Source of the DNA: Escherichia coli
GTDB lineage: Bacteria > Pseudomonadota > Gammaproteobacteria > Enterobacterales > Enterobacteriaceae
DNA length: 64,000 nt
Direction: 5' to 3' (one strand)
Assembly (NCBI RefSeq): GCF_009931435.1
Contig: NZ_CP043414.1
The notes beneath the pieces were generated by a model that did no database searches, had not been told where the DNA came from, and saw only the letters and a list, made by a program, of their open reading frames with translations. Made by a program: the position numbers and the translations under genes. Positions 1 to 46,384 of the stretch are shown here, piece by piece (the stretch's first letter is position 1; every line of letters begins with the position of its first letter).

Positions 1-1
1 C

Positions 2-457
2 GAGCTGAAAAAACTGATGCCAAACGTCGCGGCGTTTAACTCCGATAACCCAGCTAACCCGTATATGGAAGGCGAAGTTAACCTCGGCATGATCTGGAAC
101 GGTTCTGCTTTCGTTGCACGCCAGGCGGGTACGCCAATTGACGTGGTGTGGCCGAAAGAAGGCGGCATTTTCTGGATGGACAGTCTGGCAATTCCGGCAA
201 ATGCCAAAAACAAAGAAGGCGCGCTGAAATTGATTAACTTCCTGCTGCGCCCGGATGTGGCAAAACAGGTTGCTGAAACTATCGGTTATCCAACGCCAAA
301 CCTCGCCGCGCGTAAGCTGTTAAGCCCGGAAATAGCGAACGATAAAACGCTCTACCCGGATGCTGAAACCATTAAAAATGGCGAATGGCAGAATGACGTT
401 GGCGCAGCCAGCAGCATTTATGAAGAGTATTATCAGAAGCTGAAAGCAGGACGTTAA
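2..457 (+). CDS. potD: Spermidine/putrescine ABC transporter periplasmic binding protein, C-terminal part (5' end outside window)
   Basis: Frame is open from the window edge; translation ends ...IYEEYYQKLKAGR, matching the PotD C-terminus as recalled; followed by an intrinsic terminator. Confidence 0.9.
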   Translation, partial: ELKKLMPNVAAFNSDNPANPYMEGEVNLGMIWNGSAFVARQAGTPIDVVWPKEGGIFWMDSLAIPANAKNKEGALKLINFLLRPDVAKQVAETIGYPTPNLAARKLLSPEIANDKTLYPDAETIKNGEWQNDVGAASSIYEEYYQKLKAGR

Positions 458-465
458 TTCAGCAA

Positions 466-498
466 GCGGGCGGTGGTATTACCGCCCGTTTTTTATTT
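466..498 (+). terminator. Rho-independent terminator downstream of potD
   Basis: GC-rich inverted repeat cgggcggt / accgcccg followed directly by a T-run (ttttttattt). Confidence 0.7.
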
Positions 499-560
499 AG
501 CAAGGATGTGGCTAATGTTGCTGTTATGGACGAGTAAACGCTAAAAGAGGCAGTAAATAT

Positions 561-656
561 GCCAGATGCGGCGTCAACGCCTTCTCTGGTCTACGACACC
601 CGGAAATTCAATTCATTGCGCCCCATCGCAGGCCTGATAAGCGTAGCGCATCAGGC
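561..656. repeat. REP/BIME element (two palindromic units) between potD and cobB
   Basis: gccagatgcggcgtcaacgcc...ctac and gcctgataagcgtagcgcatcaggc match the E. coli REP palindromic-unit consensus. Confidence 0.7.
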
Positions 657-669
657 CATTACTCCTGAT

Positions 670-1491
670 TTATAATCCTTTCAGCAATTTCTCAACAAAC
701 TCTGGTACCACCTGGCTTGCCGGGCCGTAATATTTCTCGGCAAATTCATTACCGACCTGACTCGGTTCAAGATTGAGTTCGACAGTGTGCGCACCATGCA
801 GTTTCGCTTCGTGAACAAACCCAGCCGCCGGATAAACATGCCCTGATGTACCAATGGCAATGAAAATATCGGCCATCGACAACGCCATATAAATTTCATC
901 CATGCCGAGTGGCATTTCGCCAAACCAAACGACGTGCGGGCGCAAGGGTGCCGGGAACTGGCAACAATGGCATTTATCGTCTGACGTAACGTCTCCGGTC
1001 CAGTCGAGAATCTGACCACTTTGCGAACAACGTACTTTCAGCAATTCCCCATGCATATGAATCACATTGGTATTACCTGCGCGTTCGTGCAGATTGTCGA
1101 TATTCTGCGTCACCAGCAAAAAGCGATCGCCGAGAGCATCTTGCAGTTTAGCCAGCGCAAGATGCGCGGCGTTAGGCTGAATTTCTGGCTGCTGCAGCTG
1201 TCGACGGCGGGCGTTATAAAACGCTTGTACCAGTTCAGGATCGCGATCGAAACCTTCCGGCGTTGCCACATCTTCAACCCGATGTTCTTCCCACAGGCCA
1301 TCTGCGGCGCGAAAGGTACGAATACCTGATTCCGCAGAAATACCTGCCCCAGTCAGTACGAGTACTCTTGGTTTTTCCATTGCTTCCGGCACCACTTTAT
1401 CTCTGAAAAAAATACGCTGACGCAAACGCTCGCGCAGGCGGCGTTTATTTTTACGAAAACGACTTAACCGATGACCCCGACGCGACAGCAT
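670..1491 (-). CDS. cobB: NAD-dependent protein deacylase (sirtuin) CobB
   Basis: 273-aa [21 protein letters not shown]...[19 protein letters not shown] with sirtuin motifs; about 6 aa shorter at the C-terminus than the K-12 protein I recall. Confidence 0.9.
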
Positions 1492-1506
1492 AGCAACCTC
1501 TGTTGT

Positions 1507-2418
1507 TTACTCGGTTAGATGTAGGAAAGCCGCACCACGCATTCCTCCCGCATCACCGTGGCGCGCGCGTTCAATGCGCGGAACACGAGCTACAGGTAAG
1601 AGATGACGAGGCAGCCTGTCCGCCAGTTGCGTTGTGATTGCCGGGAAATTCGATAAGCCACCACCAATGACGACCAGGTCAGGGTCAACAATGGTCAGGA
1701 TATTTCCCAGACAAACCGCTAATAAATCCAGATAACGCTCAACGTGCGCCCTTGCCTGCTCATCGCCTTGATCATAAAGCGCAATAATTTCGGGAGCCTG
1801 CAACGGTTGATGATAATAGTGTTGATACAGCCACGCAAAACCGCGACCAGACAGATAATTTTCAATGCAGCCATGCTGACCACAGCCGCAGCGGCGTAAC
1901 GGGAAATCCAGCCCCATCATGGTTAACGCATCAACCGGCAGACGCATATGGCCAAACTCGCCGGTAATATAGCTTTTACCGGTAATTGGTTTACCGTTGA
2001 AAATCAGCCCGCCGCCAACGCCGGTGCCGAGAATCAACCCCATCACCAGTGGATATTGAGTAAATTCATCATCCCAGGCTTCTGAAAGGGCAAAACAGTT
2101 GGCATCGTTATCAAGGCGGACATCGCGATCAAGACGTGCGCTCAGATCTGCACGCAGCGATTTACCGCTGGCAGCGGGGACATTGGCGGCATACAGCGTA
2201 CCATCTTCTGTTTCCGGCATTCCCGGAATACCGATGCCGACAGAACCTTTACAGCCAAAACGTTGGTCAGCTTCGGCTACCAGCTCGCACACTGCATCTA
2301 AAAATGCGTCATAGCTGTCACGCGGTGTCGGCACCCGCTTTTCCCACTGCAACTGCCGACCGCTATCAAACACGCCAAGCGCAATTTTTGTTCCACCAAT
2401 ATCAAACCCGTAATACAT
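1507..2418 (-). CDS. nagK: N-acetyl-D-glucosamine kinase
   Basis: ROK-family kinase; start placed at the internal ATG ([17 protein letters not shown]) giving 303 aa; the track ORF extends 20 codons upstream. Confidence 0.9.
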
Positions 2419-2446: not shown

Positions 2447-5704
<3,258 letters not shown>

Positions 5705-5846
5705 CTAAATTGCCATGTTTTATCATCAATCTTGCCGCCTGATCTTAATCTGAAAAATCATCCAATACAGACAGATACCCATTACACCTCGGGTCATAAC
5801 CCGCAGGATCAACCGCATGTAAATTAAAAAAGAGCGTGTTGTCCTG

Positions 5847-6920
5847 ATGAAACAAAAAGAGCTATGGATTAACCAGATCAAAGGGTTATGTATTTGTCTT
5901 GTAGTGATTTATCACTCGGTCATTACCTTTTATCCGCATCTGACCACTTTTCAGCATCCGTTATCGGAAGTCCTGAGCAAATGCTGGATCTATTTCAATC
6001 TTTACCTTGCCCCCTTTCGTATGCCGGTTTTTTTCTTTATTTCTGGCTATTTGATTCGCCGCTATATCGATAGCGTGCCATGGGGAAATTGTCTCGATAA
6101 ACGCATCTGGAGCATCTTCTGGGTGCTGGCACTTTGGGGCGTAGTGCAGTGGCTGGCGATAAGTGCACTAAATCAGTGGCTGGCACCTGAGCGCAATTTA
6201 AGTAATGCCTCCAATGCCGCTTATGCCGATTCTACCGATGAGTTCCTGCACGGAATGATCACCGCCAGCACCAGCTTGTGGTATCTGTATGCTTTAATTG
6301 TCTATTTCGTGATATGTAAAATTTTTAACCGCCTGGCCCTGCCGTTATTTGTTCTGTTTGTACTGATGAGTGTGGCGGTTAATTTCGTACCCACACCGTG
6401 GTGGGGAATGAACAGTGTGATCCGCAATTTGCCTTATTACAGCCTTGGCGCATGGTTTGGCGCAACATTAATGACCTGTGTTAAAGAGGTGCCGTTGCGC
6501 CGCCATCTGCTGATGGCTTCTTTGCTGGCTGTTCTGGCGGTCGGTGCCTGGTTGTTTACTATCTCGCTGCTGTTGTCGCTGGTATCGATTGTGGTGATCA
6601 TGAAACTGTTTTATCAGTACGAGCAACGTTTCGGTATGCGCCCCACCAGCCTGCTGAATGTGATTGGCTCCAACACCATTGCTATCTACACCACCCATCG
6701 CATACTGGTAGAAATATTCAGCTTAAGCCTGATTCCGCAAATGAACGCGGCACGCTGGTCGCCGCAAGTCGAACTGACGCTCCTGCTGGTTTACCCCTTT
6801 GTCAGTTTGTTGATTTGTACTGTTGCGGGCTTGCTGGTAAGAAAACTTTCACAGCGCGCATTCAGCGATCTGTTGTTCTCCCCGCCTTCTCTGCCCGCTG
6901 CCGTCAGTTACTCCCGCTAA
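5847..6920 (+). CDS. ycfT: Inner-membrane acyltransferase-3 family protein YcfT
   Basis: 357-aa very hydrophobic multi-TM ORF at the position expected between lolC and mfd. Confidence 0.85.
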   Translation: MKQKELWINQIKGLCICLVVIYHSVITFYPHLTTFQHPLSEVLSKCWIYFNLYLAPFRMPVFFFISGYLIRRYIDSVPWGNCLDKRIWSIFWVLALWGVVQWLAISALNQWLAPERNLSNASNAAYADSTDEFLHGMITASTSLWYLYALIVYFVICKIFNRLALPLFVLFVLMSVAVNFVPTPWWGMNSVIRNLPYYSLGAWFGATLMTCVKEVPLRRHLLMASLLAVLAVGAWLFTISLLLSLVSIVVIMKLFYQYEQRFGMRPTSLLNVIGSNTIAIYTTHRILVEIFSLSLIPQMNAARWSPQVELTLLLVYPFVSLLICTVAGLLVRKLSQRAFSDLLFSPPSLPAAVSYSR

Positions 6921-7047
6921 GCCATCGCCCCAGCCGGGGCGATTCAATTTGCTAAACCATGTCGATTACGGATAATGAACAGCATTGCTTATCAGAGATA
7001 TGCCCCCATATGTTGAGGCATATCCTAACGAGAATCTGACAACCGTT

Positions 7048-10000
7048 ATGCCTGAACAATATCGTTATACGCTGCCCGTCAAAGCGGGTGAGCAGCGTCT
7101 GCTGGGCGAGTTAACTGGCGCTGCCTGCGCGACGCTGGTAGCGGAAATTGCCGAACGTCACGCCGGTCCGGTGGTACTTATTGCACCAGATATGCAAAAT
7201 GCCCTGCGTTTGCATGATGAAATCAGCCAGTTTACCGATCAGATGGTGATGAATCTGGCGGACTGGGAAACCCTTCCCTACGACAGTTTTTCGCCTCATC
7301 AGGACATTATCTCCTCACGCCTTTCCACTCTTTACCAGCTACCAACGATGCAGCGTGGCGTACTGATTGTTCCGGTGAATACGCTTATGCAGCGCGTTTG
7401 CCCGCACAGTTTCCTCCACGGCCACGCGCTGATGATGAAAAAAGGTCAGCGGTTATCTCGTGATGCCTTACGTACGCAACTGGACAGTGCCGGTTATCGC
7501 CATGTTGACCAGGTTATGGAGCACGGCGAATACGCCACGCGCGGCGCGTTGCTGGATCTTTTCCCGATGGGCAGCGACTTGCCTTATCGTCTTGATTTTT
7601 TTGATGATGAAATCGATAGCCTGCGCGTATTTGACGTTGACAGCCAGCGTACGCTGGAGGAAGTAGAAGCCATCAATCTGCTGCCCGCGCACGAATTTCC
7701 GACAGATAAAGCGGCAATTGAACTGTTCCGCAGCCAGTGGCGCGATACCTTCGAAGTGAAGCGCGACCCGGAACATATTTATCAGCAAGTGAGTAAAGGC
7801 ACATTACCTGCCGGGATCGAGTACTGGCAGCCGCTATTCTTCAGCGAACCGCTGCCGCCACTGTTCAGTTATTTCCCTGCCAATACGCTGTTGGTGAATA
7901 CTGGCGATCTGGAAAACAGTGCCGAACGTTTCCAGGCTGACACGCTGGCGCGTTTTGAAAATCGCGGCGTCGATCCGATGCGTCCACTGTTGCCACCACA
8001 ATCGCTCTGGCTGCGGGTAGACGAGCTCTTTTCAGAGCTAAAAAACTGGCCGCGTGTGCAGCTAAAAACTGAACATTTACCGACAAAAGCAGCGAATGCC
8101 AATTTAGGTTTCCAGAAGCTGCCAGACCTGGCCGTTCAGGCACAACAAAAAGCGCCGCTGGATGCGCTGCGTAAGTTCCTCGAGTCTTTCGACGGTCCGG
8201 TGGTGTTCTCGGTAGAAAGTGAAGGTCGCCGTGAAGCGCTGGGTGAACTGCTCGCGCGAATTAAAATTGCTCCTCAACGCATTATGCGTCTTGATGAAGC
8301 CAACGACCGTGGGCGTTATCTGATGATTGGCGCTGCCGAACATGGTTTTGTCGATACGGTACGTAATCTGGCGCTGATTTGCGAAAGCGATCTGCTCGGT
8401 GAACGCGTTGCCCGTCGTCGTCAGGATTCTCGCCGCGCCATCAACCCCGATACACTGATCCGTAACCTTGCGGAGCTGCATATTGGTCAGCCGGTGGTCC
8501 ATCTGGAGCACGGCGTCGGGCGCTATGCAGGAATGACCACGCTGGAAGCGGGCGGCATTACTGGCGAGTACCTGATGCTCACCTATGCCAACGACGCCAA
8601 ACTGTATGTTCCGGTGTCATCACTGCATCTGATTAGCCGTTACGCCGGTGGCGCGGAAGAAAACGCCCCGCTGCATAAACTTGGCGGTGATGCGTGGTCG
8701 CGGGCGCGGCAGAAAGCGGCGGAAAAAGTGCGTGATGTGGCGGCGGAATTGCTGGATATCTACGCGCAACGCGCCGCCAAAGAGGGCTTCGCGTTTAAAC
8801 ACGATCGTGAACAATATCAATTGTTCTGCGACAGCTTCCCGTTTGAAACCACGCCGGATCAGGCGCAAGCCATTAATGCAGTGCTTAGCGATATGTGTCA
8901 GCCGCTGGCGATGGATCGTCTGGTGTGCGGTGATGTTGGCTTTGGTAAAACTGAAGTCGCGATGCGCGCCGCGTTCCTGGCGGTAGATAACCACAAGCAG
9001 GTGGCGGTGCTGGTGCCTACCACCCTTCTCGCGCAGCAGCATTACGACAACTTCCGCGACCGTTTCGCCAACTGGCCGGTACGCATCGAAATGATCTCCC
9101 GTTTCCGCAGCGCCAAAGAGCAGACGCAAATCCTTGCGGAAGTGGCGGAAGGGAAAATCGATATTCTGATCGGTACGCACAAACTGCTGCAAAATGACGT
9201 CAAGTTTAAAGATTTAGGTCTGCTGATTGTCGATGAAGAACACCGCTTCGGGGTGCGTCATAAAGAGCGCATCAAAGCGATGCGGGCGAACGTGGATATT
9301 CTGACACTTACCGCAACGCCGATCCCACGTACGCTGAATATGGCAATGAGCGGAATGCGCGATCTGTCGATTATCGCTACGCCGCCTGCCCGTCGTCTGG
9401 CAGTTAAAACCTTTGTCCGTGAGTATGACAGTCTGGTGGTCCGGGAGGCGATCCTGCGTGAAATTTTGCGCGGGGGACAGGTTTATTATCTCTACAATGA
9501 TGTGGAAAACATCCAGAAAGCTGCCGAACGACTGGCGGAGCTGGTGCCAGAGGCGCGGATCGCCATCGGTCACGGGCAGATGCGCGAGCGCGAACTGGAA
9601 CGGGTGATGAATGATTTCCATCATCAACGTTTCAACGTGCTGGTTTGTACCACCATTATCGAAACCGGGATCGATATCCCGACTGCCAACACCATTATCA
9701 TCGAGCGGGCGGATCACTTCGGTCTGGCGCAGCTGCATCAGTTGCGCGGTCGCGTCGGACGTTCGCATCATCAGGCATATGCATGGCTGCTGACGCCGCA
9801 TCCAAAAGCGATGACTACCGATGCGCAAAAACGTCTTGAAGCGATTGCCTCGCTGGAAGATCTCGGTGCAGGTTTTGCGCTGGCAACGCACGATCTGGAG
9901 ATTCGCGGCGCGGGTGAACTGCTTGGCGAAGAACAAAGCGGCTCAATGGAAACTATCGGTTTCTCGCTGTATATGGAGTTGCTGGAAAACGCCGTCGATG

Positions 10001-15208: not shown

Positions 15209-15339
15209 TAGGCCTGATAAGACGCGAGCGGCGTCGCATCAGGCACATTGCCAGTGTCGGATGCGGCGTGAACGCCCTATCCGACCTACAGAATTTACAG
15301 AATCTGGAACGCATCAGGTATCAGCAAGGTTACCTGATG
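15209..15339. repeat. REP/BIME cluster plus perfect 9-bp-arm inverted repeat downstream of ycfP
   Basis: taggcctgataagacgcgagcggcgtcgcatcaggc, gtcggatgcggcgtgaacgccctatccgacctac, and catcaggta-N10-tacctgatg. Confidence 0.7.

Positions 15340-46350: not shown

Positions 46351-46384
<34 letters not shown>

Follow-up and report, generated by a model that had tools for sequence, protein, structure and literature searches.

A compact potD-cobB junction as the probable scar of a ymfA-ycfZ deletion in Escherichia cryptic clade I

In Escherichia coli K-12 the genes cobB (b1120) and potD (b1123) are separated by ycfZ (b1121) and ymfA (b1122), so that the potD-cobB distance in MG1655 is 1,430 bp. In the stretch of DNA analysed here (64,000 nucleotides of contig NZ_CP043414.1, filed as E. 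coli and hereafter called the window) the same two genes face each other across only 212 bp. The locus thus raises the question of whether the lineage that carries it never acquired the two intervening genes or lost them, and, in the latter case, how the loss came about. An earlier note made from the letters of the window had given this K-12 gene order, and it was correct: MG1655 does not have a spacer of approximately 210 bp. The evidence set out below makes it very probable that the 212-bp spacer is the scar of a single deletion of approximately 1.2 kb, by which ymfA-ycfZ were lost from a sublineage within Escherichia cryptic clade I.

The part of potD present in the window is the 3' end of the gene for the spermidine/putrescine-binding protein (positions 17-457, plus strand, from the ORF list; stop codon TAA at 455-457). 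It is 96.5% identical to K-12 potD and is annotated as potD in every matching genome. On the minus strand, cobB (670-1491) is intact and, from the ORF list and the annotation of the matching genomes, encodes a Sir2-family NAD-dependent protein deacylase of 273 residues, with 96.1% identity to K-12 cobB. The two genes are convergent and the spacer between them occupies positions 458-669. It opens with the intrinsic terminator of potD (464-499, plus strand), recognized by a terminator scan and as an inverted repeat, in which a 12-bp G+C-rich stem (464-491) is followed by a T-run. The predicted RNA fold has a free energy of −20.3 kcal/mol (z = −4.95), none of 200 shuffled sequences was as stable, and the sequence is identical in K-12. 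From what is established about such terminators, the remaining hairpin and T-run (the U-run of the RNA) would end potABCD transcripts as before the deletion. The sole ORF that was mechanically listed in the spacer (559-675, 38 aa) runs across the REPs and is not credible as a real gene; a second small ORF is a relic of only nine codons at 515-544. Thus, the description given in the earlier note, namely a spacer of about 210 bp with a terminator and REP/BIME sequences, was borne out by the terminator scan, the REP pattern match and the folds, and its statement that no ORF is present there proved essentially right, the 38-residue frame and the relic being the only ones found.

The cobB-proximal part of the spacer is a BIME with two REPs in inverted orientation. 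The first is a degenerate Y-type REP (561-594, plus strand) with four mismatches, by our own count, to the consensus GCCGGATGCGGCGTNAACGCCTTATCCGGCCTAC. It was missed by a scan limited to three mismatches, which found three other Y-type REPs in the window (15256-15289, 35074-35107 and 46351-46384, the copy at 46351 being a perfect match to the consensus). The four mismatches partly compensate one another in the stem, and the hairpin has a free energy of −14.3 kcal/mol. The second is a Z-type REP (628-656, minus strand), identified both as an inverted repeat and by pattern matching with one mismatch (0 expected in shuffles), which folds with −16.3 kcal/mol and z = −4.1. Matches to the REP consensus, imperfect palindromes and hairpins are, therefore, found in both elements. 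For a query containing the Z-REP, the median number of matching places was 12 in each E. coli genome, indicating that this REP is dispersed in many copies. The linker between the two (595-627, no strand assigned) is conserved in K-12 and in other strains and contains ATTCAATTCATTG, a motif that, by eye, differs at one position from the IHF consensus WATCAANNNNTTR and recalls the linker of BIME-1/RIP elements; we take it to be a putative IHF site.

In the RNA, the Z-REP provides the first hairpin encountered 3' of cobB, the stem of which comes to within 12 nt of the stop codon of the gene; by analogy with what is established for REPs, the hairpins of both the Z-REP and the Y-REP would form a structured 3' end of the convergent cobB mRNA. 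The spacing between the Z-REP and the cobB stop (657-672 in the window) is essentially unchanged in K-12. Liang, Rudd and Deutscher reportedly found in 2015 that REPs no more than about 15 nt away from a stop codon stall ribosomes and lower expression. An Rfam scan of the spacer gave a sub-threshold match to the REP-derived naRNA4 (520-591, minus strand), and an Rfam match to a miRNA was dismissed as due to chance.

Comparison with K-12 places the point of difference outside the REPs. From position 558 to 64000 (63.4 kb) the window aligns with K-12 in one megablast segment (96.88% identity), in agreement with the earlier note, which described every other gene as collinear with K-12. At the other end, positions 1-517 align with K-12 gap-free through the ATG of ymfA and the two sequences diverge immediately beyond it. 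In the only large gap of the alignment, 1,270 bp of the K-12 sequence correspond to 40 bp in the window; from 558 on, the window aligns with the REPs and cobB of K-12. What is retained of ymfA at the left edge of the deletion is its leader with the start codon (492-517, plus strand; ATG at 515-517), the whole 57-bp potD-ymfA leader being kept along with AAGGA (502-506), which by eye resembles a Shine-Dalgarno sequence. Beyond the ATG, the bases from 518/522 to 551 align with the last codons of ycfZ, its stop codon and downstream bases, as found in K-12, strain 200164, VCSW7 and E. whittamii. The start codon of ymfA is in frame with the last approximately eight codons and the stop of ycfZ, and the resulting ORF (515-544, plus strand) reads ATG TTG CTG TTA TGG ACG AGT AAA CGC TAA, which is translated as MLLLWTSKR, the TAA at 542-544 being that of ycfZ. 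The corresponding ycfZ tail is ...GCC GCG TTG TTA TGG ACG AGT AAA CGG TAA in E. whittamii and ...TTA CTA TGG... in strain 200164, where it ends in TGG ACG AGT AAA CGx TAA. The sequence that follows the stop codon, AAGAGGCAGTAAATAT (545-560, plus strand), is a short variant that is also present in the intact strain 200164, whereas K-12-type alleles have 12-13 extra bases after the ycfZ stop.

Strain 200164 carries the closest intact allele at the junction, the difference in length being 1,214 bp. The junction sequence of the window type is GGCTAATGTTGCTGTTATGGACGAGTAAACGCTAA, and the deletion junction itself falls within 518-521 (517/518-521), approximately 40 bp from the first REP. Its exact position is ambiguous over 2-5 nt and any microhomology amounts to at most 2-3 nt. 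None of the intact ycfZ tails compared (K-12, 200164, VCSW7, IAI1 and E. whittamii) matches the TTGCTGTTATGG of the window exactly, which accounts for the ambiguity. On the basis of these alignments, the deletion would begin directly behind the start codon of ymfA and end approximately eight codons before the ycfZ stop, with a loss of approximately 1,214 bp, leaving behind the potD terminator, the ymfA leader, the in-frame relic of nine codons and the pre-existing BIME downstream of cobB. Since the microhomology is at most 2-3 nt, the molecular mechanism would be an illegitimate, slippage-type deletion rather than a REP-mediated recombination.

The relic ORF is still preceded by a putative ribosome-binding site, but it sits beyond the terminator. 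We infer that this frame of nine codons is neutral. In the clade I strain 2013C-4282, which carries a different scar at this locus (see below), the start codon of the ymfA remnant has changed from ATG to AGG (approximately position 3240 of its locus), which argues that ymfA remnants are not under selection.

The distribution of the junction was determined in a census of 5,426 complete E. coli genomes. Of these, 4,827 carry 80% or more of the K-12 cassette, that is the ymfA-ycfZ pair; any match to it was obtained in 4,850 and none in 576, so that the cassette is absent from approximately 10.6%. The window-type junction is found in only 14 genomes, in one piece and with 98.8-99.4% identity over 171 bp. 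The carriers were sequenced independently and come from pig, cattle, goat, dog and humans. A collapse of the assembly or a sequencing artefact, for which nothing was found in favour, has practically no probability in the face of an identical junction in 14 independently sequenced complete genomes; the same one-piece junction in all of them rules it out and also indicates a single event. Each query from the region also matched five places on records labelled as plasmids, which are probably mislabelled replicons or large chromosomal fragments.

Most of the genomes that lack the cassette have another allele. The comparison with a panel of genomes proposed in the earlier note was made, and it revealed that absence of the cassette is common among complete E. 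coli genomes through this other deletion, which has a spacer of 155 bp and is referred to here as O157-type. It is present in 561 of the 5,426 genomes, including O157:H7, O145:H28 and four clade I genomes (an example is the spacer at 1958-2112 of the locus of O157:H7 OK1). In the O157-type allele, ymfA codons 1 to approximately 15, in their IAI1-type version, run into the BIME linker directly ahead of the Z-REP; the tail of ycfZ and the Y-REP have disappeared, and so has most of the linker. The window is clearly not of this type, as it keeps only the ATG of ymfA and has the Y-REP, the linker and the ycfZ tail. Each allele thus retains sequence that is missing from the other, neither can be derived from the other, and the two are independent deletions. 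The O157-type junction was also found, with approximately 92% identity by our own count, in the non-coli Escherichia sp. E1V33 (approximately 5823-5980), which means that this allele either is of old date or has passed from one species to another.

As regards the lineage in which the window-type allele is found, the plsX-fabG region of the window has at least 99% identity in only 18 of the 5,426 complete genomes, one of which is 2013C-4282. This is a completely sequenced genome of cryptic clade I (PMC10100065). A 1,368-bp gene described as a clade I-specific marker (PMC10100065) lies on a genomic island outside the window. We conclude that the window probably stems from Escherichia cryptic clade I, because of its divergence of approximately 3% from K-12 (96.87% identity over 64 kb), the presence of only 18 close relatives and the inclusion among them of a recognized clade I genome. 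No complete genome is identical to window positions 1-1600, the best match having 98.1% identity. Among the 15 closest relatives listed for plsX-fabG, 11 belong to the 14 genomes of the window type and the remaining four (2017-02-2CC, 2013C-4282, WL297 and 2020CK-00188) have the O157-type spacer. All 14 window-type genomes appear to be clade I; with the four of the O157 type they make up the 18 genomes at or above 99% identity, and all complete clade I genomes would, thus, be without the cassette, by either allele.

This distribution modifies what had been proposed at the outset, namely a strain-specific presence/absence difference: the presence/absence polymorphism is genuine within Escherichia, and it is a property of a lineage, shared by 14 genomes of cryptic clade I, rather than of a strain. 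Clade I as the clade in which the deletion happened is what we infer. An intact cassette was not found in any of the 18 complete genomes closely related to the window (14 of the window type and four of the O157 type), so that none of them offers a progenitor allele from within the clade.

The polarity of the change was evaluated on a sample of 80 cobB loci from species-representative genomes, scored for PotD, YmfA and YcfZ. In most of the sampled Enterobacteriaceae outside Escherichia (including Citrobacter, Salmonella, Enterobacter, Klebsiella, Leclercia, Trabulsiella and Buttiauxella) cobB and potD face each other with no gene in between, usually at a distance of 40-120 bp; in none of the non-Escherichia loci sampled does the junction contain ymfA or ycfZ. 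Such a distribution is what would be expected if the junction of the window were an ancestral empty site, that is, if its lineage had never acquired ymfA-ycfZ and K-12-like strains had gained them, and the deeper, family-level ancestral state would indeed be a compact junction. As an explanation for the window, however, the empty site is very improbable. The spacers of the outgroups could not be aligned with window positions 464-675, and the window holds parts of the cassette at both flanks (the ymfA leader with its ATG on one side; the last approximately eight codons of ycfZ, its stop and the downstream bases on the other), so that an insertion would have had to take place exactly after a pre-existing ATG and to borrow a pre-existing C-terminus and stop codon. 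Furthermore, E. whittamii and the Escherichia species representative L003 have an undamaged cassette, and E. albertii has ycfZ. All three branch outside the group formed by E. coli and clade I, and the cassette is also carried by 4,827 genomes of E. coli itself. It was, therefore, already there before E. coli and the lineage of the window diverged, having been gained in the Escherichia stem. A cassette that predates the split, taken together with coding remnants on both sides, makes a secondary deletion far more likely than a site that was never filled; the polarity thus rests on the relic sequences and the Escherichia outgroups rather than on the other genera.

A deletion mediated by the REP/BIME, either through REP-REP recombination or through cleavage or slippage at the REP hairpins, is also very improbable. 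The earlier note had placed the indel on the REP element, which is suggested by the position of the BIME only approximately 40 bp from the junction, by the O157-type deletion, which does end in the BIME linker just before the Z-REP, and by the unrelated inserts that make this junction a variable site in other genera. This placement did not hold for the window. Its two REPs and linker are undamaged and follow one another as in cassette-bearing strains, the same two-REP BIME being present between ycfZ and cobB in K-12, IAI1, 200164, VCSW7 and E. whittamii. The breakpoints fall at ymfA codon 2 and at the 3' end of ycfZ, and on their potD flank the intact alleles contain no REP that could act as the recombination partner. 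With a BIME that is shared with intact alleles and no potD-side REP, recombination between REPs or targeted to them does not explain the window allele; the idea of a REP hotspot fits better the O157-type allele, which ends inside the BIME. A different proposal, unlikely though deserving more weight than those considered so far, is that clade I received the allele through homologous recombination, the donor being a different, unsampled lineage of Escherichia. It is favoured by the coexistence of two different empty alleles among the complete clade I genomes (14 of the window type and four of the O157 type), by the O157-type allele that E. coli has in common with Escherichia sp. E1V33 across the species boundary, and by cobB itself, which among clade I genomes is 94.8-98.4% identical to that of the window, versus 97.6-99.3% for the neighbouring nagK and lolE, a difference that suggests a mosaic cobB with recombination tracts beside the junction. 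However, all carriers of the window-type junction among the 5,426 complete genomes appear to belong to clade I, and import would change the place of the deletion event, not the nature of the feature. A single deletion of ymfA-ycfZ within clade I is, therefore, the explanation that we retain.

Other changes at the potD-cobB junction were met in the genomes compared. Outside Escherichia, several genera have unrelated inserts just downstream of cobB (from approximately position 5822 of the loci). Some Citrobacter have a PEMT/ICMT-like membrane protein of 168 residues there, and Buttiauxella sp. B2 has a similar 170-residue ORF at the cobB-potD junction. Enterobacter has an EAL-HDOD protein at this site, with a 645-residue ORF alongside in two loci; Cedecea has an amidase, with similar ORFs of approximately 450-490 residues in Dryocola and Buttiauxella; and Kosakonia has MipA, beside ORFs of 228 and 448 residues that look like a two-component regulator and sensor kinase. 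Two labels call for comment: L003, recorded as E. coli SCPM-O-B-8794, has 93.8% identity to the window and is probably a non-coli Escherichia species, and the locus recorded as Chryseobacterium sp. 18061 (L037) carries an Enterobacteriaceae cobB, with a potD fragment approximately 4.8 kb away, and its label looks wrong.

Within Escherichia, ycfZ alone is deleted in E. coli E69, ymfA and the 5' end of ycfZ are deleted in PM06121, and several internal deletions are present at the locus of Escherichia sp. MOD1-EC7003. In JSMCR1 the deletion extends from approximately potD codon 90 through most of ycfZ, so that potD becomes a pseudogene. IS1 or IS903B is found in or beside the cassette in 2017.02.04CC, PSS-08-1, E1433, EC2641 and TUM2820, the IS1 of TUM2820 being located between potD and ymfA.

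The two genes that were lost encode membrane proteins, with a TPM domain (PF04536) in YcfZ and a DUF3592 domain (PF12158) in YmfA, according to Pfam. A tblastn search of the entire window with both K-12 proteins, as suggested in the earlier note, gave nothing significant (best E = 0.08), so that both genes are absent and no relocated copies are present. Neither protein matched the PADLOC defence models or NCBIfam. No functional study of ycfZ, ymfA or DUF3592 was found in the literature, where the genes appear only in lists and as a microarray marker. A study with a virulence/CGH microarray had already reported two groups of porcine EPEC that differ in ycfZ (b1121), one having the gene and the other lacking it (PMC2749873), and for this reason the presence/absence polymorphism of ymfA-ycfZ is already known; YmfA and YcfZ are also listed in a table that compares the membrane proteins of different E. 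coli strain groups (PMC10304320).

The sequences of the two proteins diverge to a very different extent. YmfA of K-12 and of IAI1 share only 74.7% amino-acid identity, versus 96.6% for YcfZ, whose gene is adjacent and overlapping (comparison of positions 615-1861 of the IAI1 locus with 6480-7726 of the K-12 locus). At the DNA level, 3,269 of the 4,850 genomes with a match to the cassette have only 90-95% identity to that of K-12. It is conceivable, although we regard it as improbable, that the repeated loss of ymfA-ycfZ is advantageous in some niches and that neutral decay is not the whole story. If this were true, the envelope proteins could be costly or could be exploited by, for example, a phage, a predator or a host factor, and the dimorphic YmfA, along with the IS hits and the recurrent losses (at least two independent deletions at the level of lineages, of the window type and the O157 type, and further independent ones in E69, MOD1-EC7003, PM06121 and JSMCR1), would mark a locus under conflict-type selection. 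On this reading, the relic of nine codons, with its putative ribosome-binding site, might even be translated.

The present analysis provides a clean description, at the level of the breakpoints, of one more small lineage-specific deletion in Escherichia, which is an ordinary event and reveals neither a new mechanism nor a new element. It also indicates that natural strains can do without ymfA and ycfZ, two uncharacterized envelope genes, and that their loss has occurred several times independently, which is a modest hint for work on their function. The window-type junction could serve as a marker of a clade I sublineage, being present in 14 of 18 complete clade I genomes and in none of the complete genomes outside the clade.

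Each part of the spacer can be compared with a known system. As in the Rho-independent terminator of the potABCD operon, a 12-bp G+C-rich hairpin with a U-run starts 7 nt past the potD stop codon; the difference is in what comes next, namely ymfA in the cassette-bearing strains and the scar in the window. The cobB-proximal half resembles the BIME-1/RIP elements, in which a Y-REP, an IHF-binding linker and a Z-REP follow one another: the window has inverted Y and Z REPs approximately 33 nt apart, with an IHF-like motif in the linker, directly after a stop codon and between convergent genes. It differs from them in the degenerate Y-REP, the BIME-1 subtype and the binding of IHF being putative, and the element is not specific to the window, K-12 carrying it too. 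Finally, the locus resembles gene-content differences of the type that distinguishes K-12 from O157:H7, as it is again ymfA and ycfZ that are lacking between the convergent potD and cobB; however, the allele of the window, with its spacer of 212 bp, differs from the O157-type allele and its spacer of 155 bp.
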